From the IMG/VR virus record IMGVR_UViG_3300032312_001422, positions 64,001-128,000 of that record: a stretch of DNA of 64,000 bases. One strand, 5' to 3'. The stretch is from a virus (taxonomy: Duplodnaviria; Caudoviricetes). The translations under genes were made by a program, and so were the position numbers. How positions within the stretch are numbered: position 1 is the stretch's first letter; every line of letters begins with the position of its first letter. The notes below the pieces were generated by a model. That model was given only the letters and a program-made list of their open reading frames with translations. It had not been told where the DNA came from and searched no databases. This document shows, piece by piece, positions 9,854 through 36,467 of this stretch.

Positions 9854-9879
9854 CTTTCCTGGCCCAACCCAGGGCATAA

Positions 9880-9885
9880 TAAATA
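9880..9885 (+). promoter_or_regulatory. T4-like late promoter box (TAAATA)
   Basis: TAAATA recurs a short distance upstream of many genes: 1324, 2039, 2524, 9593, 11349, 28209, 32063, 32318, 33233, 40510, 42598, 50141, 54370, 56044, 59037, 60584, 62272. It resembles the T4 TATAAATA late promoter. Confidence 0.7.
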
Positions 9886-9907
9886 GTGTTACAACCCAAG
9901 GAAGTCT

Positions 9908-11362
9908 ATGTTATTCGAAATCCACGCTGAGCGTAACGCCTCAGACAAAAAAATCTTTTATTATGACAACGAAACCAACACTTTAAAAAGTGAAGATGGT
10001 ACAGTATTTGAGTACCCGCAAATACAGGAACAAAATCAGACACCATTTGTTCCTTTCGATCGCAACCGACCCTTGAAGAAAAGCCGTGCAATACAGTTAT
10101 TGAAGATCCAAATGGGACTCAGTTGTAACTATAGTTGCGATTACTGTAGTCAAAAGTTTGTGGAACGTGCTCCGGAAACTTCAAAGAAAGACATTGATCT
10201 TTTTTTAGAAAAATTCAAAGTGTTAGAGTTTGATGAACAAAAGGGACTCAAAGTAGAGTTTTGGGGCGGAGAGCCATTTGTATATTGGAAAACATTCAAA
10301 CCCTTGGCTGAAGCTATTCTGGAAAAATTTTCCCATTGGAAACGCAAGCCACAGTTCAGTGTGATCACCAATGGCAGCATACTCAATGAGGAAATCATTG
10401 ACTGGCTTATGAAGCTGAACTTTGTTGTGAGCATCAGTCACGACGGTCCGGGACAACATGTGCGTGGACCCGATCCTTTTGCAGATCCTGAAAAGAAAAA
10501 ACAGATCCTGGGATTTTATCGTCAAATGAGTCGACTCAAAAAGGGCTTTAGTTTTAATCCCATGCTGAATGCTCAAAACATCAGTCGTAAACGGATCTAT
10601 GATTGGTTTGTGGATTTCACTGGAGATCCCAATGTAGTCCTAGGCGAGGGCGGAATCGTAGACAGCTATGATGCGGATGGCATGCAAAACAGCCTGCAAA
10701 CCAAACAGCAACATTTTGAATTTAGACGTACAGCCTTTGCTGATATCTTTAGCACACAAGGGCAAATTGGATTCAAGATGCAGTTGGACAAAATTGATGG
10801 CTTTACACAAAGCGTGTTGAGTCATGCTGATTCCAAGTATCTGGGACAAAAATGTGGCATGGACAATGAAAACACCTTGGCCATTGACCTACGTGGTAAT
10901 GTGATGACTTGTCAAAACGTCAGCAGTCTTGAAACTGGCAAAAACGGTGAAAGCCACTTGGGTGGTAATTTAGATGACTATGACAACGTGGCCATCAAGA
11001 CAAGTACACATTGGTCGAATCGTGCCGAATGCCCCAAGTGCCCTGTGTTGCATCTCTGTAAAGGTGCCTGCATGTTCCTGGACAAAGAGTTTTGGGATGT
11101 CAGTTGCGCCAACTCCTATTCAGACAATGTGGCCCTGTTTGCCTTGGCCATAGAAAAAATAACGGGTTATATTCCCACCTTGATCAAACAAGATGAATTG
11201 CCTTTGGAACGTCAAGACATATTTGGTACCATATACCAGCACACAGAAACTGAAAAGAAACGCATTATACCTATCAAAATTGTCAGTGAAGTAGTTGGAG
11301 AAATTGAAGGTGTTGAAGTGTATGGGCAAAGTCGTGTAGAATCAGTCATAAATACTCAATAA
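9908..11362 (+). CDS. radical SAM enzyme with SPASM domain
   Basis: CNYSCDYC (CxxxCxxC), FWGGEP, SISHDG; SPASM C-x13-G-x4-C and CPKCPVLHLCKGAC-x11-C. Confidence 0.95.
   Translation: MLFEIHAERNASDKKIFYYDNETNTLKSEDGTVFEYPQIQEQNQTPFVPFDRNRPLKKSRAIQLLKIQMGLSCNYSCDYCSQKFVERAPETSKKDIDLFLEKFKVLEFDEQKGLKVEFWGGEPFVYWKTFKPLAEAILEKFSHWKRKPQFSVITNGSILNEEIIDWLMKLNFVVSISHDGPGQHVRGPDPFADPEKKKQILGFYRQMSRLKKGFSFNPMLNAQNISRKRIYDWFVDFTGDPNVVLGEGGIVDSYDADGMQNSLQTKQQHFEFRRTAFADIFSTQGQIGFKMQLDKIDGFTQSVLSHADSKYLGQKCGMDNENTLAIDLRGNVMTCQNVSSLETGKNGESHLGGNLDDYDNVAIKTSTHWSNRAECPKCPVLHLCKGACMFLDKEFWDVSCANSYSDNVALFALAIEKITGYIPTLIKQDELPLERQDIFGTIYQHTETEKKRIIPIKIVSEVVGEIEGVEVYGQSRVESVINTQ
11349..11354 (+). promoter_or_regulatory. 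late promoter box for the Cys-rich gene
   Basis: TAAATA inside the 3' end of the rSAM gene, about 20 nt before ATG 11375. Confidence 0.6.
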
Positions 11363-11374
11363 AGTGAATTTACT

Positions 11375-12283
11375 ATGACACTACCAGCATCAGGACAAAT
11401 TGCAATCAGCGACGTCAGCGCCAAAATTGGGCAGGCCGCCACTTTCTCCACAAGTTTAAATTTCCTCAATGGATTAATTCGTAGTGATCAACGCCCGGCC
11501 ACACCTAGCATGACTGCTTTTTACAACAAAAACTATTTTCAAAATACTGCCGACGGTGCCAACTGTGCCAACGGCAACTGCACAGCAAATTGCAACTGCG
11601 GCAATATTCAATGTACTAATTGTGTCATAACTGGCACGATTAATTGTGGCAATTGTGACAGTCAGGCCTGGTTGCAGAATAACTGTAACTGTGCCTGTAC
11701 ATATAACTGTACCAGTGCAAACACAAGTTATGCGTGTAACTGTGCCTGTAACTGTAGTAAAATTATCTGCGCCAAGTTATACGACTTTGGCCTAATGGAT
11801 CAAAATATTTGGGCAGCTGACCAAGCATACGGTCAGTGGTTGCGTAAGAAAGACCGTAGAGTATATCGCGGTTATGTTCGCTGGGCACGTATTGTTACTG
11901 CTTGGATGGACGGCAAAGGTCCCAACTACATGCCCTGGATCTTGGATGCTGACCGTCGTAGTGAGGCACAAAAGGCCGCTATCACAGACATGGCTATCAA
12001 GATCGGCACACCATGGTCAGAGCATATGGCCTACTTGATGGGTGCGTTGCCCGAAGACAACGTCCAAGGACGTATTCTAATGGAAATAGGTAAACCTATT
12101 TGCCGATTTGTCGATAGCTTACCACGTGTTGGTAAAAAGTCACGTCGCCATCGCTTACCAACATTATACACAATGTGGGCTTTGTTTTACTTGAGTTACT
12201 ACACTTCTTTGGTAGGTGCTCGAACTCATTTGTTTTTTAAAAGTTTTAGTTTTGACAAACTAAGACAAAGGACAATAAAATGA
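11375..12283 (+). CDS. Asn-Cys-rich protein, candidate rSAM substrate and probably virion-associated
   Basis: 17 Cys in residues 64-132, 12 of them as NC dipeptides; MTLPASGQIAISDV N-terminus; C-terminal domain starting KIICAKL. Confidence 0.8.
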   Translation: MTLPASGQIAISDVSAKIGQAATFSTSLNFLNGLIRSDQRPATPSMTAFYNKNYFQNTADGANCANGNCTANCNCGNIQCTNCVITGTINCGNCDSQAWLQNNCNCACTYNCTSANTSYACNCACNCSKIICAKLYDFGLMDQNIWAADQAYGQWLRKKDRRVYRGYVRWARIVTAWMDGKGPNYMPWILDADRRSEAQKAAITDMAIKIGTPWSEHMAYLMGALPEDNVQGRILMEIGKPICRFVDSLPRVGKKSRRHRLPTLYTMWALFYLSYYTSLVGARTHLFFKSFSFDKLRQRTIK

Positions 12284-12918
12284 CCACGGTCATTGATGAA
12301 AGTATTTTTTCCAGTAGTGTGAAACAATCATTATGGGAATGTCCGGTGTGGCACCAAAAAACTCCGTTTACAGAAACGTTTAATAAAGAGTTGTTGAAAG
12401 AAATGTACGAGATTGCTAGTACGTTTGACGAATCCTCAGGGAAAGAATCCCTATTAGATTATGATCGTCCCTGTATGCAAGAATTAATTGACTTTAAGAC
12501 TGAGGTAATCACCAATGTTGTCAATCAATACATGCCAGACACGCAAGAAGCCCGGTTTGTTGTATCGGGTGCTTGGCTTAATGTAAACACAGCCGGAGAA
12601 CGAATCGAACTTCATGCACACCCCGATTCGTCTATAGCTTGTAGTTATTACATACAAGGACCAGATGTTGGCGGTGAGTTTTACTATGTTGATACCGGCA
12701 GAGTTGGCGAGCACCGAACAGAAATTAAAACAATAACCCCTAAAAATGGCGACATGATATTTTTGCCATCGTATGTGCTACACGGAGTCAAGATGAATCT
12801 GGGGAGATGTAGAGTAAACCTGACTACAGATTTTAAACATGACCTTACCAAAGACAGCAAGGATCAGTTAGTGTTGAAAAGTTTTATAAACAGTATGCTA
12901 AGGATTAAGGATTTATGA
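12280..12918 (+). CDS. putative 2OG-Fe(II) oxygenase (TIGR02466-like)
   Basis: WLNVN...LHAHP...CSYY...FLPSYVLHGV...RVNLT. Confidence 0.8.
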   Translation: MTTVIDESIFSSSVKQSLWECPVWHQKTPFTETFNKELLKEMYEIASTFDESSGKESLLDYDRPCMQELIDFKTEVITNVVNQYMPDTQEARFVVSGAWLNVNTAGERIELHAHPDSSIACSYYIQGPDVGGEFYYVDTGRVGEHRTEIKTITPKNGDMIFLPSYVLHGVKMNLGRCRVNLTTDFKHDLTKDSKDQLVLKSFINSMLRIKDL

Positions 12919-13313
12919 GCGATATTATTGTAGGCAAGCAACCAGTAGATTTTGATGCTGAAGATTACAACCGATATGTCAAGTATTTTTTAGACACTGA
13001 AGTTGGCGGTATTGTGTTCAATCTCACCAAGGATGAACAAGACAGCTTCTTTGAGATGTGTTATCGATATCCTGTCATATTAGACAAAGTGTTTTTGCTA
13101 CCCGGTGATCCTTTAATGAATTATATCATGTATGGTAACGAATTTTATGATGCACTCAAAAATCCACATGATGGTATTGACTTTAGTCCAAGCTACATTG
13201 TGGCTCAATATCGAGAGTGGGCTAAGGCACGCAATATACCCGAGCCTGTAGATCAAGTGGCAGTTGAAGGCTTAGATGTCACACCCATGCTGGAATTCCA
13301 AAAACAGCTATGA
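12915..13313 (+). CDS. hypothetical protein
   Basis: ATGA-coupled ORF inside the cluster; no motif recognised. Confidence 0.7.
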   Translation: MSDIIVGKQPVDFDAEDYNRYVKYFLDTEVGGIVFNLTKDEQDSFFEMCYRYPVILDKVFLLPGDPLMNYIMYGNEFYDALKNPHDGIDFSPSYIVAQYREWAKARNIPEPVDQVAVEGLDVTPMLEFQKQL

Positions 13314-13876
13314 ATCGGTACTATACTAAGTTAGATAGTATTAGTCCAAGCCTGTACAACAATTTTGAAAACCTAGGCGAACAACACGTTTGCGGCGGTG
13401 GATGGACTAGATACTACCGCACCAACTTGAGCAGAAATATACTATTGCCAGACCACTTGAAGCAGAGTTTTAATCTAAGCTACATGACATTTATTGGCGA
13501 CAATGCTCATCCACATGTGGATTTAGAGATAGGTTGTAGAATAAACATATATCTGTCTGACAATAAATGCCCAACCAAGTTCTTTAGTGTAAAGTCTGAG
13601 GAATTTACCAAACCCAAACCAGTCACGTGTGTAGGGTGTACAGTAGAAAAGTTCTGTGCTGGAGAGTGCCAGTGCAGTTACAAACTTGATAATCTAATGT
13701 TAGAGGATGAATTCGTAGCCCGCAAACACGACATATACCTGTTAAATATTCGCAAGATACACAGCGTAGAAGGACTCAGTAAAACCAATTACAGAGAAGC
13801 CCTGTCGTTTACCACCGATCTTTCTTATGAAACAGTATACGAATCTTTACAGCAATATGGCGCATTCTCTGTTTAA
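13310..13876 (+). CDS. 2OG-Fe(II)/cupin-like oxygenase with inserted Cys motif
   Basis: HVD, IHSV and R-x-A-x-S triad pattern; insert CVGCTVEKFCAGECQC. Confidence 0.65.
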   Translation: MNRYYTKLDSISPSLYNNFENLGEQHVCGGGWTRYYRTNLSRNILLPDHLKQSFNLSYMTFIGDNAHPHVDLEIGCRINIYLSDNKCPTKFFSVKSEEFTKPKPVTCVGCTVEKFCAGECQCSYKLDNLMLEDEFVARKHDIYLLNIRKIHSVEGLSKTNYREALSFTTDLSYETVYESLQQYGAFSV

Positions 13877-14384
13877 AAAACTTGCTGTAGCAGCCAATAT
13901 TGATTTTAAAATTCTAGATAAGAAAATAGAATTTGAGTTAGACTCTGCAGGTCGCCGAATACAATACTCCAACGTATCTTCACGCTACGTAGACAATTTC
14001 ATAGCTGGTCTTGGCCATCACGGAAAGCATTTTTATACAAGTTTTGTCAGCGTAGAAACAAATGTGCCGCCACACACAGACATTGTTGATCGAGTCAACA
14101 TCAACTTCTACATAGAAACAGGTGACTACCAAACTACGTTTTACAGAAGCAATGACAACTCAGCACGATTTACCTATGCAGATCACGGCGATGGTCATGC
14201 GTATCGTATAGAAGAACTAGAGCCTGTGGATAGTTTTGTTGCCCAACCCGGCGATGTGTACATTTTAAATGGTAAAAATATTCACGGAGTTGCCTGTACA
14301 GAGCCTACACCAAGAAAATTTTTGCAAGTCTCTACCAACCAGTTAGAATATGATCAAGTTTTAGAAATTTTGAATCTATGTTAA
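13857..14384 (+). CDS. 2OG-Fe(II)/cupin-like oxygenase
   Basis: PPHTD, NINFYI, IHGV, RKFLQVS; ATG 13857 preferred. Confidence 0.65.
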   Translation: MAHSLFKKLAVAANIDFKILDKKIEFELDSAGRRIQYSNVSSRYVDNFIAGLGHHGKHFYTSFVSVETNVPPHTDIVDRVNINFYIETGDYQTTFYRSNDNSARFTYADHGDGHAYRIEELEPVDSFVAQPGDVYILNGKNIHGVACTEPTPRKFLQVSTNQLEYDQVLEILNLC

Positions 14385-15082
14385 TGTTGATCTATACCAT
14401 TGCAACAATTCACCTGGGCTGTGCAGTGGCTTCGTTGTACATGCATCGGTATGTGATACACAGACAGTATCGTATGACTCCAAGAACAGAAATGGTCATG
14501 AAAGTCATGTATTGGATGTTGTTTGATGTGGTCACTAGAGAGTTTGTGGTACAACATAGAAAGCATCATGAATTCTCAGACACATACAATGATCCTCACA
14601 GTCCGAGATTTGGTTTTTGGTCATTGCTGAGATCTTGTCTGGTTCCAAGCTTCTTTAGATCCTACAAAATAACTGTGTCCGATTCGGAGTATCAGCGATA
14701 CGGTGCCGAGACTGCCACCAACACCGTTATTGATCGACACCCAAGATTGGGAGTTGTATTGTTATTGGTAATAAACATTGTGTTGTTTGGTTGGTTGGGT
14801 ATCATTGCGTGGATCGTCCATTTGTTTGCTGTGAATTTTTTAATAATAACAACAATAACAGTATTTGGGCATAGCATTGGCGGCAGGAACTTTGATCTTG
14901 GCGACTTTACTCGTAATGTTGTTCCTGTTGGCATATTGTGTGTGGGCGAAGAGCTACACAACAATCATCATAAAGATAGCAGGCTGTATAACATGGCTAT
15001 AAATAAAAATGAATTCGATCTAGGATTCTTTTATCTACAACTTTTAAATCGATTTGACTTGGTTCAATTCAAACAAAAATGA
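14378..15082 (+). CDS. membrane fatty-acid (acyl-CoA/lipid) desaturase
   Basis: His boxes HRYVIH, HRKHH and HNNHH plus TM segments. Confidence 0.9.
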   Translation: MLMLIYTIATIHLGCAVASLYMHRYVIHRQYRMTPRTEMVMKVMYWMLFDVVTREFVVQHRKHHEFSDTYNDPHSPRFGFWSLLRSCLVPSFFRSYKITVSDSEYQRYGAETATNTVIDRHPRLGVVLLLVINIVLFGWLGIIAWIVHLFAVNFLIITTITVFGHSIGGRNFDLGDFTRNVVPVGILCVGEELHNNHHKDSRLYNMAINKNEFDLGFFYLQLLNRFDLVQFKQK

Positions 15083-15678
15083 AAATAACTAAAACAGACA
15101 TGTGGGTGACCCCAGTGTGGGAAATTCAAACCGACTTTGACCAACAGTTCAACAACGAACTGCTGGACGAGCTTGGGCAGTACTGTGATCCCGAATCGGA
15201 TGTGGGCAACTCTAATATCTGGAACTGTGACACGCCACGAGTACAAGAACTAAAAAAATACACTATCAAAGTAGTCAAATCACAAACATACGATTACATA
15301 GCACCAACTGTCAAAGACTTTGAATTCTGGCACGCCCGTGGTTGGTTAAATTATCACAAGACAGGTGAAGGTATTCCCATACACGGACATGGTAGCCCTA
15401 AGATTGCAATGACCTACTATGTCAAGGCTCCCGACAACTGTGGGGATTTGTTACTGATAGATCCTCGCAACGGTTGCGACTGGGATTCAGGCAACGATGG
15501 TGTCAATGGTACCAAGTTTAACAGAATTAAACCAGTCGAAAGCAAACTGGTATTTTTCCCAGGGTTTGTATTACACATGGTCGAACCCAATCAGTCTGAC
15601 CAAGTTAGGGTATCTGTAACCAGCAACATGGGCACATTTGATAAAAGTACTGCTCAAGCATTTAAAAATACACTATAA
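15079..15678 (+). CDS. putative 2OG-Fe(II) oxygenase (TIGR02466-like)
   Basis: WLNYH...IHGHG...YYVKAP...FFPGFVLHMVEPN...RVSVTSN; paralog of 12280. Confidence 0.8.
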   Translation: MKITKTDMWVTPVWEIQTDFDQQFNNELLDELGQYCDPESDVGNSNIWNCDTPRVQELKKYTIKVVKSQTYDYIAPTVKDFEFWHARGWLNYHKTGEGIPIHGHGSPKIAMTYYVKAPDNCGDLLLIDPRNGCDWDSGNDGVNGTKFNRIKPVESKLVFFPGFVLHMVEPNQSDQVRVSVTSNMGTFDKSTAQAFKNTL

Positions 15679-15687
15679 GGATGTACA

Positions 15688-16479
15688 ATGTCATTCTATG
15701 AAAAATTAGACTTTATCAAATATGATCATGACCGCCTGGTGACCGATGTGCAACAACATGTGTTCAGTCTGGGACAAGCTGTTATACAGGGCGAGGAATA
15801 TGAAACCGATGCCTACAAGGGTTTTGGTGGATGGAGTCTGCAGAGTCAAACCGGAGACTGGCAAGACGGCTGGGAATTTTTTCAAAACGAAGAAGGCACC
15901 ACTATTGAAGAAGTATTCTTTCCCAAGGATGCTAACAATTACACTACCTTAAAATACTTTAATATTGCACATTCTTTAGAGTACAAAAAGCCCACACAGG
16001 GCTATTGCGGTGAGATTGCCGAGGTGATTGATCAAATAGAGGCATTCGGCTTGACACCTAGACGAGCCAGAGTAACCTGTTTAAAAGCTGGTAGCAAAAG
16101 CCTAGTACACAGAGATTGTGGTGAAAACCAATACATGGCACGTATACACATACCCCTGATCACCAATCCTGAGTGTACTTTTACTGCCGAAGGAGAAACC
16201 TTATACATGGAACCCGGTACGGCCTACATGGTCTGGGTAAATGTGTGGCATCAGATTCGCAATGATTCGGAACAAGATCGATATCACATAATTATGGATG
16301 CTTACGATACCAGACATGTCACAGATAAGTTCAAGTACATGGGTGATATTAGCCAGTTGGAAACCTTTGCCAACGAATTGCGGCAACAGGTTGATCAAGC
16401 TGTTGTTACTGCAGATTTGGAACAAAAGTTTGAAACTGAATTGGCAAAATGGCGAACTAAATCCAAGGTTGACACATAA
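15688..16479 (+). CDS. aspartyl/asparaginyl beta-hydroxylase-family oxygenase
   Basis: RARVTCLKAG, VHRD, RIHIPLITN, WHQIRN, RYHIIMD. Confidence 0.85.
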   Translation: MSFYEKLDFIKYDHDRLVTDVQQHVFSLGQAVIQGEEYETDAYKGFGGWSLQSQTGDWQDGWEFFQNEEGTTIEEVFFPKDANNYTTLKYFNIAHSLEYKKPTQGYCGEIAEVIDQIEAFGLTPRRARVTCLKAGSKSLVHRDCGENQYMARIHIPLITNPECTFTAEGETLYMEPGTAYMVWVNVWHQIRNDSEQDRYHIIMDAYDTRHVTDKFKYMGDISQLETFANELRQQVDQAVVTADLEQKFETELAKWRTKSKVDT

Positions 16480-16844: not shown

Positions 16845-18110
16845 ATGAAAAAAACGTCACTGACAACCATTGCCGCCAGTACAATTGGCACAGTATTTGA
16901 ATGGTATGATTTTGTTATCTTTGGCTTGGCCAGTGTTCTTGTTTTTAATAAATTGTTTTTTCCAAACATTGATCCAGCTCTGGCCCTGGTAGTGTCAATG
17001 CTGGCCTATGCGGTGGGCATTGTAGCACGACCATTGGGTGGTATCATCTATGGCATGATAGGCGACAGGTTTGGTCGAAAACGCATGTTGACCACTACCA
17101 TGTTGCTTATGGGCATCAGTACTTTTATAATTGGTGTGTTGCCTACATATGATGCTATTGGAATATGGGCACCTGTTATTTTGATCTTGCTAAGAATTAT
17201 ACAAGGTATTGGCATTGGCGGCGAGTGGGGAGGAGCCAGTGTTATAGTACAAGAACATGCACCCGACAACCGTCGTGGTTTTTATTGTAGTTTTGTACAA
17301 ACAGGACTGCCTATGGGAATGTTAATGGCATCGGGTATATTTGCTGTGCTGAATTTGATGTTGAGCGAACAAGAGTTTCTTGCCTGGGGGTGGAGAATCC
17401 CGTTTCTGTTGAGTGCAGTCTTGGTGATTATTGGCACAGTTCTTAGACATCAAATTTTAGAAACTCCGGTGTTTTTAAAACTAACACCTCCCACAAATCC
17501 CATTAACGAGCTATTTACAAAATATCCAACAACCTTGTTCAAAGGTATCGGACTTAAAATAACAGAAAGTGTTTGGTTTTTCATAGTCACAGGTTTCATT
17601 GTCGGCTATGCTGTAAACAATTTTAATATACCAAAAAAAGATCTGTTACAAATTGTAATGATGGCCAATGCTGTCAGTATTGTGTGGACCGTGATAGTGG
17701 GTTACGTGTCAGATCTAATAGGACGACGTCCAATATTTTTCTTTGGATCTGTTTTTACAATGATCATGCCGTTTCCATTATTTTATTTGGTTGGCACCGG
17801 CGAGTTTGCAATGATTGCCACAGCAATGATAATAGGACAATGTATTGGTAGTACCACAATGTTTGCTGTTTTATCATCATACCTGCCAGAGATATTTCCT
17901 CCTAGTGTACGAAGCATAGGCAGTAGTTTGAGTTTCCAACTTGGAGCCGCTGTAACCGGTGGCATAGTTCCTGTGTTGGCCGCCTGGGCAGTTGGATACT
18001 GGGGTAGCAACTATGCTGTTTGTATCATCATGATGCTGTTTGGTGCAATTACTTTTGTATCTGCTTACAGGTCTAAAGAAACATTTCGCTTGGCGACAAA
18101 TAAATTATGA
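16845..18110 (+). CDS. MFS metabolite:H+ symporter (MHS family, ShiA/YhjE-like)
   Basis: FEWYDF, GDRFGRKR, QGIGIGGEWGGA; about 12 TM segments. Confidence 0.92.
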   Translation: MKKTSLTTIAASTIGTVFEWYDFVIFGLASVLVFNKLFFPNIDPALALVVSMLAYAVGIVARPLGGIIYGMIGDRFGRKRMLTTTMLLMGISTFIIGVLPTYDAIGIWAPVILILLRIIQGIGIGGEWGGASVIVQEHAPDNRRGFYCSFVQTGLPMGMLMASGIFAVLNLMLSEQEFLAWGWRIPFLLSAVLVIIGTVLRHQILETPVFLKLTPPTNPINELFTKYPTTLFKGIGLKITESVWFFIVTGFIVGYAVNNFNIPKKDLLQIVMMANAVSIVWTVIVGYVSDLIGRRPIFFFGSVFTMIMPFPLFYLVGTGEFAMIATAMIIGQCIGSTTMFAVLSSYLPEIFPPSVRSIGSSLSFQLGAAVTGGIVPVLAAWAVGYWGSNYAVCIIMMLFGAITFVSAYRSKETFRLATNKL

Positions 18111-18937
18111 TCAATACTTTTGTTGACAAACCCGACTTTATAATCAATGATCCTAGAATCAATCGTCCAATGCATTGGCAGTACACAGTCTCAGCCGAGC
18201 TCATGTCAACCCGGCACAAGTTGTTTTTTCATAAAACTGACCTTGCAGGCAAACGTATACTAGATCTGGGATCCTGTTGCGGTGCCACTGGTGCTTGGGC
18301 ACTGGATCGCGGAGCCAGTCATTACACCGGAGTTGAATTACAGACCAAGTTTGTAGAAACTAGCCGCTCTGCACTAGGCAAACATTATTCGCCAACTCAA
18401 TGGAACATAGTGGCCAGTGGAGTTGAAGAATATCTAACTAATTGTACAGAAAAATTTGACATAGTGATCATGGTGGGAGTACTACATTGTTTGTTTGATT
18501 ATCAGCATGTGTTGAATCGTATTACAAAAATCAGCAACGAAGTCATAATTGAGTGTTTTCATCCCTACAATGCGTTTAAAGATCTTTTCCCAACCTTAGA
18601 CAATGATGCATTATATACTCTGTGCAAAACCACAAGCCTAGCACAAATAGCAACCAAAACCGGTACTGCTGGAGAAAACGGTGGCAGTTATAACTTCGAC
18701 GGTGTACGACTATCAATGTTGGGACTTGCTAATGTTTTTGGTTATCTAGGTTGGCACACGGATTTGTTGTTCAATGATGTGTGTATAGAAAAGCTACCAG
18801 ATGTTTACAGTCTCGATACACCAAGCTATTGCCCTCGTTATGTAACAAGAAGTGTAGTAGATAAAAGAACGGTATTTGAATTTGCCGACGGCTACTTGGA
18901 TCCTGCAAAAACCAACTATGAATACAAAAACTGGTAG
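18107..18937 (+). CDS. class I SAM-dependent transferase (CmoB/DUF1698-like)
   Basis: DLAGKRILDLGSCCG, TGVE, FDIVIMVGVLH. Confidence 0.75.
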   Translation: MINTFVDKPDFIINDPRINRPMHWQYTVSAELMSTRHKLFFHKTDLAGKRILDLGSCCGATGAWALDRGASHYTGVELQTKFVETSRSALGKHYSPTQWNIVASGVEEYLTNCTEKFDIVIMVGVLHCLFDYQHVLNRITKISNEVIIECFHPYNAFKDLFPTLDNDALYTLCKTTSLAQIATKTGTAGENGGSYNFDGVRLSMLGLANVFGYLGWHTDLLFNDVCIEKLPDVYSLDTPSYCPRYVTRSVVDKRTVFEFADGYLDPAKTNYEYKNW

Positions 18938-19553
18938 CTGGACATTTGATCAACATGTTGCTGAAACATTTGTGGATCACGCCAGACAACATATTCCCAA
19001 CTACGACGCAGTCATTGATAAATGCATTGATATATGTCGGCAACTAACACCATCGGCCAGAATAGTTGATGTGGGTTGTGCCACCGGCGAAACAATACGC
19101 AGGCTACACTCTCAAGGATTTGACAATTTGACAGGTGTTGAGTCCAGTCATGCCATGTTACAACATTGTGATCGTGCCTTGGCTGAATACATACACAGCG
19201 ATAGATTCCCAAACAAAATATTTGACATAGTATTGTGCAACTGGACCTTGCATTTTATCAAAGATAAAATTGAGTATTTGTATAATATACATCAAAATTT
19301 AAGCCCGGGAGGTTTTCTTGTGCTTAGTGATAAAACCAGTTTAAATCCTCGTGCAATTAGATTGTATCACCAGTGGAAACACCAACAAGGAGTTTCGTGG
19401 GAAGATATTCGTGCCAAAGAACAGGCCGTAGAAGGAATCATGCACATAAACGATAATAAATGGTACTTGGAATCCCTGGAACAAATTGGCTTTAAAAACA
19501 TACAAATCATTGATGCCAGTTGGTGCTTTACAACATTCTTATGTGAAAAGTAA
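18918..19553 (+). CDS. CmoA-like SAM-dependent enzyme
   Basis: WTFDQHVAETF, IPNY, DVGCATG, NWTLHF, PGGFLVLSDK; ATG 18918. Confidence 0.8.
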   Translation: MNTKTGSWTFDQHVAETFVDHARQHIPNYDAVIDKCIDICRQLTPSARIVDVGCATGETIRRLHSQGFDNLTGVESSHAMLQHCDRALAEYIHSDRFPNKIFDIVLCNWTLHFIKDKIEYLYNIHQNLSPGGFLVLSDKTSLNPRAIRLYHQWKHQQGVSWEDIRAKEQAVEGIMHINDNKWYLESLEQIGFKNIQIIDASWCFTTFLCEK

Positions 19554-28238: not shown

Positions 28239-29816
28239 ATGAAAGTTAAAAAAATCATAGTCGTAGGCGGCGGAACCGCGGGCTGGCTCAGTGCTGGTTT
28301 TTTGTCGAATCAACTGCCCGGCATAGAAATCACTGTGATACACAGTAAAGAAGTTCCTATCATTGGTGTAGGCGAAACCACAGTACCACAGTTCCGTAAT
28401 CATTTGGAAAAAATGGGCTTACAAGAAGATGTATGGATGCGTGAGTCGGGTAGTACGTTCAAGTACGGAGTTACTTTTGATGGATGGCGTACAGGCACCG
28501 ATACTCGCTGGCACGGCTTTGGTGATTTTATCACAGAAAAAGGTATTAGTCACAGCGTAGACGAATTTGGCAAGCGTGTTAGTTGTGCCAAAGACGACTC
28601 TGTACTAGTAGCTGACTACTGGATTGAGATGCTCAAGCGTGGCATTGTCACAGAAGCGGATTACTATCAATACGCATCAGACACATATCATCTAGTACAA
28701 AATCGTCGTGCTCACAGAGACCTAGCAGGACACCAGTATTCAAGTCGTGTGCCCGGCTATGCTTACAACATCAACGCATTCAAAGTTGGCCAAACTATTC
28801 GAGACAAGGTGGCCTTTCCCAACGGTGTTCGTGCCCTAGAGCGTCATATCGTACGAGTTGATCGTAACGAACGTGAAGAAGTCACAGGCATTGTGGACGA
28901 TAGCGGGGAAACACATACCGCAGACTTGTACATTGACTGTACCGGTTTTAAACGATTGCTAATTGGGCCCGTGGCCAAATGGGTCAGTTACGAAGATCGA
29001 CTACCTTGTAAAAATGCCATTGGCGGTCGTGTAAACTATCAAGGCAAACAAGAAGAATTCTGCGTACCTAACCTGCATGCCACAGCATTCAAGCACGGTT
29101 GGTCTTGGCGTGTTCCCTTGCGTGACGACATGGGTTCGGGTTATGTTTATGATACACGTTATACTACCACCGAACAGGCAATTGAAGAGCTAGGTGCTTA
29201 CTGGCGTAATCTAGGGATGGAGTGGGATCATAAAGTTACCTTAAAATTTGATAATGGTATTTTAGATCGTTCAGCACACCGCAACGTTATTGCTTGTGGC
29301 TTAAGTTCAAACTTCCTGGAACCCCTAGAAGCAACCAGTATCAGTTTCACTACACTTATCAATGAGCTAGTAGTAGCAGTATTGAAGAAACATGACAATC
29401 AATGGGATGACAAAAATGCCGAAGTTATTAGCAGACTTATGCACCGAGAAGTTAAGATCACTGGAGACTTCCTATGGGCACACTATGCCTTGACAGAACG
29501 TAGCGACACAGAGTTCTGGCGTGAGCAAGCTACCAAACGTGAGGAAGCTGTGGACATGGTACACGGATGGTTTGGTCGACATTTTAGCGATATCTATCGT
29601 AGAGAAAAAGACTTTGACCACACACGTTATAACAAGTACGATTGGGCACAGACTATTACTACCATGCGAGCATTTGCGGATTGTCCTACTAGACCTATTA
29701 ACGAAGCATTATTGCCACGTGCAAAACTATGGTATCAACATCGCGATGAAATGGCACGTGGTGTTTTAGACTTGGTGCCAACACACTGGGAATTGATCAA
29801 ATATATCAATAGATAA
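28239..29816 (+). CDS. flavin-dependent (tryptophan) halogenase-family protein
   Basis: VVGGGTAGW, GVGETT, TFKYG (catalytic Lys position), DCTGF, GWSWRVPL, FLEPLEATSI. Confidence 0.92.
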   Translation: MKVKKIIVVGGGTAGWLSAGFLSNQLPGIEITVIHSKEVPIIGVGETTVPQFRNHLEKMGLQEDVWMRESGSTFKYGVTFDGWRTGTDTRWHGFGDFITEKGISHSVDEFGKRVSCAKDDSVLVADYWIEMLKRGIVTEADYYQYASDTYHLVQNRRAHRDLAGHQYSSRVPGYAYNINAFKVGQTIRDKVAFPNGVRALERHIVRVDRNEREEVTGIVDDSGETHTADLYIDCTGFKRLLIGPVAKWVSYEDRLPCKNAIGGRVNYQGKQEEFCVPNLHATAFKHGWSWRVPLRDDMGSGYVYDTRYTTTEQAIEELGAYWRNLGMEWDHKVTLKFDNGILDRSAHRNVIACGLSSNFLEPLEATSISFTTLINELVVAVLKKHDNQWDDKNAEVISRLMHREVKITGDFLWAHYALTERSDTEFWREQATKREEAVDMVHGWFGRHFSDIYRREKDFDHTRYNKYDWAQTITTMRAFADCPTRPINEALLPRAKLWYQHRDEMARGVLDLVPTHWELIKYINR

Positions 29817-33260: not shown

Positions 33261-36200
33261 ATGGCATTGACCTGGCAACCCACTTCTATTAAAGATATCA
33301 ACGAAGGTACCACCGCTAACGACGGTACCGGCGATAGTATTCGCAACGCATTTTTCAAAGTTGACGAAAACTTCAGCAATATAACCAGTTTTTTCAATGG
33401 AGGTGGCGACTATGCTACCGGTCCAGCATTCAGTACACTTGCAATTACCACTGCTAATATTGCTCAAGGCAATGTAGGTAACATAGTAATAACCAACATC
33501 AATGGTCCATACACCAACGCCGCAGTCAATGGCACCAATGTCTATGGAAATATCAATGTGGCTGGTAATATTGTGCCAACTGCATATGGTACATACAATC
33601 TTGGTAGTCCGGACAGACCGTTTGCAAATCTTTACGTTGTGGCAACTATATCAACCACACAGATTACCACATCCAGTGATGCAGGTCTGTTAATTGTTCA
33701 CGCCAATACCACACCCAGTGATGAAAAAGACGTTGGTATCATTGGCAACGTAAGTAACCACTTCAGCAGTAACATGTATGCTTTCTTTGGTTATCAAGCA
33801 CTGACCAATAATTTTGTTTACAAACTCACCCCCAACAATGCTGCTACTGTGGGTAACTCAGTTGTTTATGATGGTGCATATGGTAATGTACAATTTGGTG
33901 CATTGTATCTAAGTAACACCACTCCGGCAACCAGCAACATTACCGGTGCCTTAATTGTGGCAGGTGGAATTGGCACCAATCAGGACATACATTCAGCTGG
34001 TAATATCTATCAGCGTGGCTATCGTGTTTTGAATACTTCCGATGTCAGTGGCATAGGCTACCCTATTTTTAACGGAACTGGTAGTTTGTTTGCTGGTAAT
34101 ACTATATTTGCAACTACTACTCCTTCTGTGTCAACCAATACCGGCGCTGTAGTAGTATTGGGCGGTGTTGGTGTGGCAGGCAATATCACAGCCGGCGGAT
34201 ATGTTGGTAATTTTCACGGCAATGTGGTAAATGCTGTACAACCATACATAACCACAGTTGGTAGTTTAGGTAACTTGACTGTGCTAGGCACAACAAGTAC
34301 CAGCAGTTTACAAGCCACTTCGGGTTCAATCACTGGATTATTGGCAACCACTGGTATCTTCCAGACTCAAACTACCACATTACTATTGACAGCGGCCACA
34401 ATCAATGCTGGCACAATTGGTAACACTGGTGCCAACATTGTGGGCACAATCGGTACTGCTGCACAACCCAACATTACTACAGTTGGTAACCTTACTAACT
34501 TATCCATTGCCGGTAATTTAAATGTCACCGGATCAACCAGCCTGGTTGGTAATGTCACATTCCCTAATATCACAGTTACAACTACAGCCGTGGTTGGAAA
34601 ATTAAACTCCGCAGGAAACATACATGTCACCGGCGGTAATTTGACAGTCAGTACTGATGCAACCGCAGTGGCTTTTGTTACTTCAGCAGGATTAACCAAC
34701 AGTTTATTAACAGTTAGCAAGTCAGCCAATTCGTTTGTTCAAAGTGCGTTGACTAACCGCAGTTCGGGTACCAGTGCCAGTACTGATTTTATTGCTTATG
34801 CCAACAATGGTACTAATACTCAAGGTTACATTGACCTGGGTATTGCCAGTTCAGGATTCAATGACCCTGCATTTGGTATAACTCGTGCTGGAGATGGCTA
34901 CATTTTTGTAAGTGCTCCGGCAGGTACAGGCGGTAATTTGGTTCTTGCCACATCCGACGGCTCGTATGGTGACATTGTGTTTGCCGCCAATGGATTTGTG
35001 TCGGGCACAGAACAAGGTCGATTTGTGACCAATGATGGCTTGTACTTGACTGGTAACTTGGTTGCTACCACAGGCGTCATTTATCAAGGTGAGGGCGCCA
35101 AAACTCTTGAAATTGACGATTATTTTTCCCCAGGCTATGCGGGCCTGACTAATGCATCTGCTATATTTGTGGGCAACACCAATTCGTTTGTACAGTTGGC
35201 CATGCGTAATCATAGTCCAGGATCTGCTGCCAGTACCGACTTGATTGCTTACAGTAGCAATGGCGACAATGATTCTGGTTGGATAGACATGGGTATCACC
35301 AGCGAAACTTTTGCTGATGCCACATTTGGTGTAACTGGTCCTGCTGATGGATACATTTTTATGAGTGCCCCTGTTGGTACAACAGGGAATGGTAGCATGT
35401 ACCTCAGTACCAGTGGCAATGGTACCAAAAACGACATTGTATTCAGCACAAATGGATTTAGTGCCGGTAATGAGCGTATGCGTATCATTGGTCAAGATCG
35501 ACCGGGAGATCCTGCCGGTGTAGAAATTTACATTGCAACCACGAGTACCAGTACCACAACCGGTGCCCTGCGTGTACAAGGTGGTGTTGGTGTACAAGGT
35601 AACTTGAACGTTGCTGGTAACGTAAACATCATTGGTAATTTAACCTTTGGTGGCGAAGGAACAAGCGTAAGTACATCAACATTAACTGTTGAAAATCCAA
35701 TGATATTCTTGGCCAACGCCAACAATGCCAATACTTTTGATATTGGTACAGTTGGCAGATACAGAAGAGCAGCCAACGTGTTTACAGGACTTGTTCGTCA
35801 GGCCACCACAGGCGGATGGAGATTGTTTGACGGTGTAACCAGTATACCAACAACCACAGTAGATTTTGCACAAGCAAGCAATGGTAATTTGATGGTTGGT
35901 AGTGCTATGGTTGCTAACTCAACTGCAAGTACCAGTACAACCACAGGAGCCCTACAGGTTGTTGGTGGTGTGGGTGTGCAAGGCAACATATATGTTGGCG
36001 GTAACTTTATGCCTGGTGCCAACCTTACCAGCAACATTGGTAGTACCACCACATGGTTTAACACATTCTTTGGTGTAAGTACGCAGGCCAAGTATGCTGA
36101 CTTGGCAGAACGTTACGCCAGCGACGCCCCGTACGAACCTGGCACAGTTGTGATCTTTGGCGGCGATGCTGAAATTACAACAACCAATACATTTGCTGAC

Positions 36201-36467
36201 GTCAGTGTTGCAGGTGCTATTTCTACAGATCCTGCTTATTTGATGAATGCCATGGAAGAAGGTTTACCAGTGGCTCTGCGTGGACGTATTCCTCTCAAAG
36301 TTATTGGCCCTGTAGCCAAAGGAGATCTGTTAGTCACAGCTGGACAAAACCCTGGGTATGCTACCAGCGTGGGTCGAAGCACAGACTATCCATTGGCAGT
36401 ATTTGCCAAGAGTTTAGAAAATAATCAAGAGCCAGGTGTAAAAATAATTACAGCGGTAATTCTCTAA
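33261..36467 (+). CDS. tail fibre/baseplate-type structural protein with C-terminal intramolecular-chaperone-like domain
   Basis: NEGTTANDGTGDSIRNAF N-terminus; G/T/N-rich repeats; ADLAERY...PGTVV...PVALRGR C-terminus. Confidence 0.8.
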   Translation: MALTWQPTSIKDINEGTTANDGTGDSIRNAFFKVDENFSNITSFFNGGGDYATGPAFSTLAITTANIAQGNVGNIVITNINGPYTNAAVNGTNVYGNINVAGNIVPTAYGTYNLGSPDRPFANLYVVATISTTQITTSSDAGLLIVHANTTPSDEKDVGIIGNVSNHFSSNMYAFFGYQALTNNFVYKLTPNNAATVGNSVVYDGAYGNVQFGALYLSNTTPATSNITGALIVAGGIGTNQDIHSAGNIYQRGYRVLNTSDVSGIGYPIFNGTGSLFAGNTIFATTTPSVSTNTGAVVVLGGVGVAGNITAGGYVGNFHGNVVNAVQPYITTVGSLGNLTVLGTTSTSSLQATSGSITGLLATTGIFQTQTTTLLLTAATINAGTIGNTGANIVGTIGTAAQPNITTVGNLTNLSIAGNLNVTGSTSLVGNVTFPNITVTTTAVVGKLNSAGNIHVTGGNLTVSTDATAVAFVTSAGLTNSLLTVSKSANSFVQSALTNRSSGTSASTDFIAYANNGTNTQGYIDLGIASSGFNDPAFGITRAGDGYIFVSAPAGTGGNLVLATSDGSYGDIVFAANGFVSGTEQGRFVTNDGLYLTGNLVATTGVIYQGEGAKTLEIDDYFSPGYAGLTNASAIFVGNTNSFVQLAMRNHSPGSAASTDLIAYSSNGDNDSGWIDMGITSETFADATFGVTGPADGYIFMSAPVGTTGNGSMYLSTSGNGTKNDIVFSTNGFSAGNERMRIIGQDRPGDPAGVEIYIATTSTSTTTGALRVQGGVGVQGNLNVAGNVNIIGNLTFGGEGTSVSTSTLTVENPMIFLANANNANTFDIGTVGRYRRAANVFTGLVRQATTGGWRLFDGVTSIPTTTVDFAQASNGNLMVGSAMVANSTASTSTTTGALQVVGGVGVQGNIYVGGNFMPGANLTSNIGSTTTWFNTFFGVSTQAKYADLAERYASDAPYEPGTVVIFGGDAEITTTNTFADVSVAGAISTDPAYLMNAMEEGLPVALRGRIPLKVIGPVAKGDLLVTAGQNPGYATSVGRSTDYPLAVFAKSLENNQEPGVKIITAVIL

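Follow-up and report, generated by a model that had tools for sequence, protein, structure and literature searches.

A radical SAM/SPASM enzyme paired with an Asn-Cys-rich protein in a T4-like phage: a candidate system for cross-linking fibre tips

Introduction

The stretch of DNA analysed here (the window, 64,000 nt) comprises bases 64001-128000 of the 288,815-bp virus record IMGVR_UViG_3300032312_001422, which is ~80% complete and represents the ~289-kb genome of an uncultured T4-like phage. At 9908-16479 of the window, nine open reading frames (ORFs), all on the plus strand, bring together a radical S-adenosylmethionine (rSAM) enzyme, a 302-aa protein rich in Asn-Cys dipeptides (the NC protein) and a series of putative oxygenases. 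The locus raises the question of what such an enzyme modifies in a phage. A preliminary description, made from the sequence, proposed that it modifies a virion-associated protein, or a peptide released from it, in the manner of enzymes acting on peptides that are made by ribosomes and then modified after translation (RiPPs). In pelagimyophages, rSAM cassettes lie in the host recognition cluster, where they were merely noted (PMC7029224). We found no paper describing an rSAM/Asn-Cys fibre system in the literature searched, and a megablast comparison of the locus with the phage collection gave zero matches.

Results

The rSAM enzyme and the Asn-Cys core travel together

The preliminary description had named a gene-neighbourhood survey as a test of the pairing between the enzyme and the NC protein. 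Using the rSAM as query, we fetched 80 IMG/VR loci and sorted them by rSAM identity into tier 1 (>=70%, n=38), tier 2 (56-67%, n=15) and tier 3 (40-46%, n=27). A full-length NC protein is encoded 3' of the rSAM, directly or past one inserted desaturase gene, in 34/38 tier 1 loci, and the remaining four loci end within 260 nt of the rSAM gene. In all 15 tier 2 loci, the N-terminal domain and Cys core of the NC protein (together module A) are encoded directly upstream of the rSAM, as a stand-alone protein, fused to a Peptidase_S74 or a Hint domain, or with a Gly-rich insert. In at least 14 of the 27 tier 3 loci, a fibre-like ORF with CxCxCxC at its end lies 0.7-1.6 kb upstream of the rSAM gene, separated from it by one ORF of 250-310 aa; these proteins carry NCNCNCNC, CNCVCNC or CNCACDC within two residues of the C terminus. 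Among the 2,121 six-frame ORFs of the 80 loci, every ORF with CxCxCxC lies within 2.5 kb of the rSAM gene (52/52), and the motif is absent from all 1,026 ORFs beyond that distance. Thus, homologs of the enzyme are syntenic with Cys-rich ORFs, and the attempt at refutation failed.

The CxCxCxC criterion replaced that of 5 Cys in 20 aa, which was too strict for short fibre tails. A minus-strand ORF at 35955-36263 that has 5 Cys in 20 aa was rejected as a shadow frame within a 1068-aa gene.

Approached from the side of module A, an rSAM gene of the same family is adjacent in seven of nine sampled contexts, and the other two contigs end too soon; a seeming counter-example (P0185) is a 4-kb contig that ends past two desaturase-like genes. 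No rSAM gene was found within 6 kb of genes for proteins that have only module B, the C-terminal part of the NC protein. Therefore, the enzyme follows the Cys core and not module B. Moreover, in a maximum-likelihood tree of the rSAM enzymes, those linked to module A form one clade (support 100/99), the type with modules A and B downstream forms a nested clade (100/99), and the fibre-tail type forms a separate clade, i.e. the phylogeny of the enzyme mirrors the architecture of its target. Overall, the pairing of the rSAM with the Cys/Asn-rich protein is conserved and is not a matter of chance.

The enzyme resembles thioether-forming maturases

The enzyme belongs to the radical SAM superfamily by its match to PF04055 Radical_SAM (39.8 bits, cut-off 29.5) and is related to phrog_1802 (E 1.5e-63). 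For the SPASM domain, we looked for the seven-Cys motif CX9-15GX4C ... CX2CX5CX3C ... C plus a match to NCBIfam TIGR04085, and found both (34.1 bits, cut-off 27). The CX3CX2C cysteines C73, C77 and C80 as well as the SPASM residues C316, C335, C375, C378, C384, C388, C400 and G330 are invariant among 48 homologs of 41-93% identity. Hence, the enzyme retains the full three-cluster set of Cys. The earlier assignment of an rSAM with a full SPASM domain, encoded 12 nt upstream of the NC protein, is confirmed.

The closest named families are PapB, the geopeptide maturase, QhpD, CcpM and the SCIFF maturase, which are thioether-forming maturases. PapB (NF047865) is the best-scoring named family in all three tiers, and the alignment is full-length in two; scoring 85 bits in the window, 91 at L087 and 53 at L060 (overall range 52-91) against an equivalog cut-off of 340, the enzymes are not members of it. 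The QhpD family TIGR03906 is the third-best NCBIfam match of the window enzyme (64 bits, cut-off 453), and TIGR04115, the maturase family of CXXX-repeat systems, is not among the matches listed for five rSAMs of the family (the best 25 for the window and L087 enzymes). The closest solved chains are 8vpo, CteB (5wgg) and anSME (4k37). Going by this family resemblance, the enzyme may form thioethers.

Other radical enzymes and atypical loci were noted alongside. The genome (G000) has 12 PF04055 matches, a large number for a phage, and seven of them exceed the Pfam cut-off; the only one with module A as a neighbour is the rSAM described here. L087 encodes a second radical enzyme, a B12-binding class-B radical SAM (L087:181-1680) that lies directly upstream of a gene for a module A-S74 fusion, followed by the SPASM rSAM, and that has weak matches to RiPP C-methyltransferase and PhpK-like families. 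At L057:4017-5096, three tandem paralogs of 113-119 aa ending in ...SLTNCNCACDCL are followed by a 288-aa ORF and a divergent, long-branch rSAM.

The Asn-Cys core is a defined domain behind a folded N terminus

The NC protein has no match in Pfam or PHROG, and none in NCBIfam at E up to 0.1. Its residues 64-132 contain 17 Cys, as described previously, 16 of which fall within residues 59-127; the same segment contains 11 NC dipeptides, and the previously given figure of 12 holds only if N63-C64 is counted. Composition-matched shuffles contain 3.7 NC dipeptides, and none of 20,000 reached the observed number. The Cys in the core are spaced as CxC and NC, with neither a match to TIGR04114, the CXXX-repeat target family, nor a Cys at every fourth residue. 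A word-indexed search returned 421 relatives of about 300 aa, all of them unnamed metagenomic proteins, in which the core Cys and Asn are nearly invariant and some of which have additional NC-repeat insertions. Among 67 diverse module A homologs, Cys, Asn, Q101 and Y110 are invariant or near-invariant in the core, with the pattern roughly GNC-NNGNC ... CNCGNIQC-xNC ... NC-xNCD-xxxWLQ-xNCNCACTYNC ... SYNC-NCxCxC, and the conserved unit is the NC dipeptide/CxC. Judged by this conservation, the Cys core (~65 aa) is a defined conserved domain and not a segment of low complexity.

AlphaFold2 gave no confident fold for the core as a monomer (predicted local distance difference test (pLDDT) 31-52), and a confident fold was still absent with a more diverse alignment. 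The N-terminal 58 residues are predicted at pLDDT 83-90. The same fold opens viral proteins with GP38, Gly_rich_2, Laminin_G_3, BACON or Lcl_C domains (Atlas and BFVD rows). Among 48,161 solved chains, the only one reaching Z 2 with this domain is gp38 in the gp37-gp38 fibre tip of phage S16 (6f45_D), of which residues 2-46 superpose with Z 2.5 and a root-mean-square deviation of 2.2 A over 45 aligned residues. These weak but concordant similarities suggest that the N-terminal domain may dock the protein to a fibre. Foldseek of the full-length model against the PDB gave nothing below E 1.

Modules A and B recur separately

An exhaustive profile search over 1.84 billion cluster representatives gave 1,134 matches and divides the NC protein into module A (positions 1-127), i.e. 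the N-terminal domain and the Cys core, and module B (positions 127-271). In many clusters module A is a stand-alone protein of 125-135 aa, and in most it occurs without module B. In other proteins module A leads straight, at residues 128-131, into a Hint domain (P0150, P0219, P0228, P0246, P0253, P0256 and P0270) or a Peptidase_S74 chaperone domain (P0211 and L040); in total, one or the other lies directly past the core in at least eight independent clusters. The matches exceed the cut-offs for Peptidase_S74 (29 bits for L040 and 38 for P0211, cut-off 22) and Hom_end_hint (40 bits for L054 and 35 for P0150, cut-off 32.1). The NC protein of the window has no Pfam match to S74 or Hint after the core, and module B occupies that place.

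The preliminary description had pointed out that a leader peptidase and an exporter are missing. Pfam, NCBIfam and PHROG scans indeed found no RiPP recognition element (RRE), protease or exporter family in the cluster; the observation has to be qualified in that many relatives carry a self-cleaving domain built in after the core. As inferred from the known behaviour of Hint and S74, cleavage would leave the Cys segment as a free C terminus, which it already is in the stand-alone and fibre-tail forms.

AlphaFold2 predicts module B to be all-helical (pLDDT 75-86), and one of its helices, at about 261-291, is hydrophobic. The proteins whose C termini it caps, with a sharp start at profile position 127, range from 185 to 1859 aa; among them are DUF4815 giants, Gly_rich_2 proteins and the product of a cyanophage gene adjoining a fibre gene. 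In a tblastn search of the NC protein against the phage collection only module B was matched, in one cyanophage, and among AlphaFold database clusters module B matched uncharacterised proteins only.

One further arrangement was observed in P0140 (693 aa), which reads Gly_rich_2, Hint, module B, all three Pfam matches being weak and under gathering scores. This layout parallels that of Hedgehog, i.e. cargo, Hint and adduct-recognition region. By this analogy, one idea is that module B might recruit a nucleophile or a lipid for Hint-mediated C-terminal ligation.

The Cys tail ends tail fibres, also in cultured phages

The Cys-tail proteins of L059 and L060 match several PHROG tail-fibre families (E 1e-13 to 5e-20). 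Moreover, tier 3-like rSAMs are present in three cultured Burkholderiales phages, i.e. Achromobacter phages JWF and 2-1 and Ralstonia phage RSP15. In JWF the gene order is gp028, gp029, rSAM gp030 and the lysis cassette, and gp028, annotated as a T4 gp36-like fibre/Hint family protein, reads ...KPRQNCNCDCNCNCS then CFPAGTMVLMADG..., i.e. fibre, Cys tail and Hint. Phage 2-1 has the same layout, and in both phages the fibre-NCNCDCNC-Hint gene lies two genes 5' of the rSAM gene, inside the tail module. In RSP15, the rSAM gene lies past the side tail fibre gene, the product of which ends in ...NTNCQCGN. A paper citing phage JWF mentions neither the rSAM nor the Hint protein. Peptidase_S74 is a hallmark of fibre and spike assembly. 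Because the Asn-Cys module of the relatives forms the far end of tail-fibre-type proteins, the part that is cross-linked would probably belong to the host-contact apparatus.

In the window, ATAAATA boxes precede the start codons of the rSAM and NC protein genes by 23 and 21 nt, in agreement with the late boxes described previously. Eight of the 19 plus-strand copies of ATAAATA in the window sit 10-35 nt 5' of an ORF start, compared with 0.56 expected; the total number of boxes in the window is not above expectation, and only their position is unusual. This placement fits a T4-type late promoter. Since the relatives are fused to S74 or Hint or match PHROG tail fibres, and since the two genes have late-type boxes, the Asn-Cys protein is more likely to be a virion decoration than an exported antibiotic, in line with the original proposal.

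The gene cluster and its accessory enzymes

All nine previously described ORFs are present, and the features of the cluster are listed in Table 1. From the NC gene onward, the seven genes that follow are joined at -4, -4, -4, -50, -7, -4 and +9 nt; the coupled run of genes reported before consists of six overlaps of 4-50 nt and one gap.

Table 1. Features of the rSAM/Asn-Cys cluster (window coordinates)
Feature	Position	Strand	Remarks
ATAAATA late-promoter-like box	9879..9885	+	23 nt 5' of rSAM start codon
Radical SAM enzyme with full SPASM domain, 484 aa	9908..11362	+	PF04055, TIGR04085, phrog_1802; proposed maturase
ATAAATA late-promoter-like box	11348..11354	+	Within rSAM 3' end; 21 nt 5' of NC protein start
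NC protein, 302 aa	11375..12283	+	Start 12 nt past rSAM stop
NC protein residues 1-58, N-terminal domain (MTLPASGQIAISD...)	11375..11548	+	Predicted folded; possible fibre-attachment domain
NC protein residues 59-127, Asn-Cys-rich core	11549..11755	+	Conserved; proposed rSAM substrate
NC protein residues 128-302, module B	11756..12283	+	Predicted helical C-terminal domain; hydrophobic helix ~261-291
2OG-Fe(II) (2-oxoglutarate/iron) oxygenase, 212 aa	12280..12918	+	PF13759 41.7 bits, TIGR02466-like; phrog_81
Orphan o132, 132 aa	12915..13313	+	No family; kept in tier 1 clusters
o188, 188 aa, 2OG-oxygenase-like	13310..13876	+	HxD...H motif: HPHVD, KIHSV; paralog of o185
o185, 185 aa, 2OG-oxygenase-like	13827..14384	+	HxD...H motif: PPHTD, NIHGV; paralog of o188
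Short DesA-like membrane fatty-acid desaturase-like di-iron enzyme, 234 aa	14378..15082	+	PF00487 45.3 bits
2OG-Fe(II) oxygenase, 199 aa	15079..15678	+	PF13759 49.7 bits, TIGR02466-like; phrog_81 E 1.4e-29
Asp/Asn beta-hydroxylase-family protein (AspH-like), 263 aa	15688..16479	+	PF05118 52 bits, cut-off 22.6

The gene assignments of the preliminary description are confirmed for the PF13759 pair, the AspH-like protein, the desaturase and the orphan. The paralogs o188 and o185, which it took for cupin/2OG oxygenases, have the HxD...H motif and match no family over threshold in Pfam, NCBIfam or PHROG; o185 has a weak NCBIfam match to the L-isoleucine dioxygenase HilA (E 0.0014). The orphan o132 belongs to no family in the same three collections, and the desaturase scores 160 bits with NF049918 (cut-off 400).

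Only within tier 1, the clade closest to the window, are genes resembling o132, o188 and the AspH-like gene conserved. Homologs of o132 were found in 21 tier 1 loci and in L002, L003 and L005; the AspH-like gene is present in every tier 1 locus with enough downstream DNA, with a single copy in the genome. The possibility that o132 and o188 follow module B and not the rSAM was rejected, as homologs are absent beside genes with module B only. PF13759 oxygenases recur beside the rSAM family in all three tiers, and one Cys-free tier 3 subtype has four 2OG oxygenases. Desaturase-like genes adjoin module A in three arrangements, including one between the rSAM and NC genes. In pelagimyophages, PF05118 is a core gene that is present with or without rSAM cassettes, and the cassettes are variable (PMC7029224). 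Hydroxylation of the NC protein by the oxygenases of the cluster stays a guess, because the o132-like, o188-like and AspH-like genes are restricted to tier 1 and because PF05118 is core in pelagimyophages regardless of the rSAM.

Several neighbouring genes were recorded in addition. In the tier 3 subtype of L063-L065, L069, L070 and L084, three to four 2OG oxygenase genes (PF13759, PF13640) precede the rSAM gene, which is followed by small ORFs including a SprT-like one or by a Cys-free, Asn-rich fibre gene (955-1658 aa). At L109:1657-3393, two His-box desaturase-like membrane proteins are encoded right after a stand-alone module A that itself lies past a Peptidase_S74 fibre gene, on a contig that stops short of any rSAM gene. 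Trp-halogenase-like flavoenzymes are encoded two to four genes past the rSAM in tier 2 (L040:8722-9876 and L107:5041-5738), and the window has a Trp-halogenase-family ORF 17 kb downstream (28239-29816, phrog_2928, E 3.7e-92); this enzyme may be a further tailoring enzyme of the same toolkit. Directly past the cluster lies a gene for a homolog of major facilitator superfamily (MFS) metabolite/H+ symporters (16845-18110; TIGR00883, 385 bits, cut-off 443; phrog_2034), with two more ORFs 3' of it at 18107-19553. Homologs of periplasmic solute-binding proteins (DctP, TctC) are encoded near rSAM loci at L060:7637-8581, L002:7619-8536 and L002:15797-16753.

Discussion

A proposed mechanism and its weak points

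We propose that the rSAM/SPASM enzyme and the Asn-Cys core are enzyme and substrate, and that the enzyme installs cross-links, probably thioethers, in the Cys core of a protein of the fibre or adhesin type; we give this reading a probability of roughly one half. The NC protein would be a late-expressed fibre- or adhesin-type component of the virion and not a secreted peptide, built from a small docking domain at its N terminus, the Cys core and the helical C-terminal module B. SAM-derived radicals would join Cys sulfur to a carbon of nearby residues, and the resulting links would be thioethers of the ranthionine or sactionine type, within or between chains. Such stapling could turn a Cys/Asn segment that is otherwise unfoldable into a covalently linked tip. 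Because module B has the same position as the self-cleaving Hint and S74 domains of relatives, it may aid assembly and then be removed. The oxygenases as well as the desaturase-like and AspH-like enzymes may add further modifications. More tentative is the wider proposal that phages use dedicated rSAM/SPASM enzymes to cross-link the Asn-Cys tip of fibres and adhesins, that many lineages then cut off Hint, S74 or module B by self-cleavage and in this way expose the modified C terminus, and that the system is widespread, the clusters at 50% identity numbering over 1,000.

Several observations weigh against the proposed cross-linking of a fibre protein. First, on the side of the enzyme, every score with a named maturase family is far under its cut-off in NCBIfam, and models of anSME and DynA also align full-length to the rSAM, leaving other chemistry possible. 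An RRE-type recognition domain is not evident in the rSAM, the N-terminal 60 aa of which appear too short for a PqqD-like RRE. Second, on the side of the NC protein, NxxC is not enriched (6 compared with 3.6 expected, P about 0.1), and these motif counts do not support the earlier analogy to the NxxC/NxxcB system. The likeness to gp38 is weak (Z 2.5), PF05268 does not match the NC protein, and its hydrophobic C-terminal helix could be a membrane anchor. Third, about six well-flanked tier 3 loci have the rSAM, four 2OG oxygenases and a Cys-free giant fibre with no Cys-rich ORF nearby.

Alternative explanations

The alternative that survives best, although we regard it as unlikely, is that the Asn-Cys core serves a trimeric fibre tip as a structural motif that binds metal or forms disulfides, and that the rSAM performs other chemistry or has another target. 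In that case, CxCxC would be akin to the HxH iron sites of T4 gp37 or to the transient cysteine annulus of the P22 tailspike, and the rSAM could catalyse epimerisation, form C-C links or oxidise Cys, or its target could be a glycan or a different fibre component. CxC and CxxC motifs are typical metal ligands, and the alternation in CxCxCxC sets all Cys on one face of a beta-strand. The Cys-free fibres that adjoin some rSAM relatives together with 2OG oxygenases, and the full-length alignment of the anSME and DynA models, also speak for it, as does the use of C-terminal cysteines in the assembly of the P22 tailspike (PMC3357383). However, T4-type metal sites need no dedicated enzyme, and the proximity of CxCxCxC to the rSAM (52/52 compared with 0/1,026) together with the co-diversification of enzyme and target is hard to explain if the enzyme does not act on the Cys segment.

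We consider it improbable that the locus is a true RiPP pathway in which module A is a precursor with leader and core and the modified peptide, released from the cell or at lysis, is a toxin, a signal or a metal chelator. One paper on cyanophages counts the gene of a phage rSAM maturase among those for antibiotic synthesis but gives no evidence for it (PMC12801897). The many stand-alone relatives of 125-135 aa with a conserved N terminus and a Cys-rich C terminus beside an rSAM would suit a precursor, and Hint or S74 domains could free the product; however, the cluster has no protease or exporter, and the N-terminal 58 residues are predicted to form a folded domain common to adhesin-type viral proteins and not a floppy leader. 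Moreover, the same Cys tail ends true tail fibres, S74 is typical of fibre and spike assembly, and the genes have late-type boxes.

Equally improbable is that the C-terminal hydrophobic helix anchors the NC protein in a membrane of the infected cell, where it would act, for example, in superinfection exclusion or in controlling lysis and would be modified with desaturase-like help: the long hydrophobic helix at about 261-291, one relative locus adjoining holin and lysozyme genes, and the recurrence of membrane desaturase-like genes beside module A would agree with this, but most clusters have module A without module B, and the proteins capped by module B include fibre-like giants of as much as 1,859 aa, among them the product of the cyanophage gene beside a fibre gene.

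Implications

Tail-fibre tips set the host range of phages and must withstand harsh surroundings. If the proposed cross-linking is correct, a covalent staple that an enzyme installs in a fibre tip would amount to a new principle in how virions are assembled, and RiPP-type radical chemistry would extend from small peptides to viral structural proteins. It would also provide a function for the rSAM cassettes and some 2OG oxygenases in the host-recognition regions of aquatic T4-like phages, define two uncatalogued domains, i.e. the Asn-Cys core and module B, and supply enzymes with which Cys-rich scaffolds could be stapled. In Achromobacter phages JWF and 2-1, which are in culture, the cross-linking idea can be tested directly.

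Comparison with known systems

By analogy, the closest functional precedent is CrpC/CrpA of Methanococcus voltae, in which CrpC, a SPASM rSAM, introduces ranthionine links into CrpA, a Cys-rich protein of 28.8 kDa, as described in a 2026 study (PMC13692751). In both systems a SPASM rSAM adjoins a Cys-rich protein and not a short peptide, and the predicted fold of CrpA is unreliable (PMC13692751); that the N-terminal part of CrpA engages CrpC (PMC13692751) we count as a further likeness. The two systems differ in that CrpC/CrpA is archaeal and of unknown function, CrpC has an RRE, and the motifs of CrpA are C-x-x-(M/D/V) in an unrelated sequence. Moreover, CrpC/CrpA is linked to neither a phage nor a fibre, and it lacks Hint, S74 and module B.

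The PapB and freyrasin maturases also have Cys-rich targets, but those of PapB are short CX3D/E peptides with a leader. The SPASM rSAM of QhpD/QhpC forms Cys-to-Asp/Glu thioethers within a folded protein subunit; its target is a subunit of quinohemoprotein amine dehydrogenase and not a virion protein. The streptococcal ranthipeptide system NxxcB/NxxC likewise has a SPASM rSAM and, close to a Cys, an Asn that could be the acceptor; however, it differs in its motif, as the NC protein is not enriched in NxxC and is built on NC dipeptides and CxC. Canonical RiPP precursors have a disordered leader and rely on an RRE, whereas the N-terminal 58 aa of the NC protein are predicted to be folded.

On the side of the fibre, the comparison is with gp38 of S16/T2-type long tail fibres (6f45), the attachment domain of which superposes on the ~50-residue N-terminal domain of the NC protein. 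The distal part of gp38 is a polyglycine sandwich, whereas that of the NC protein is Cys/Asn-rich. Viral proteins with this N-terminal domain bear varied distal binding domains, GP38 included.

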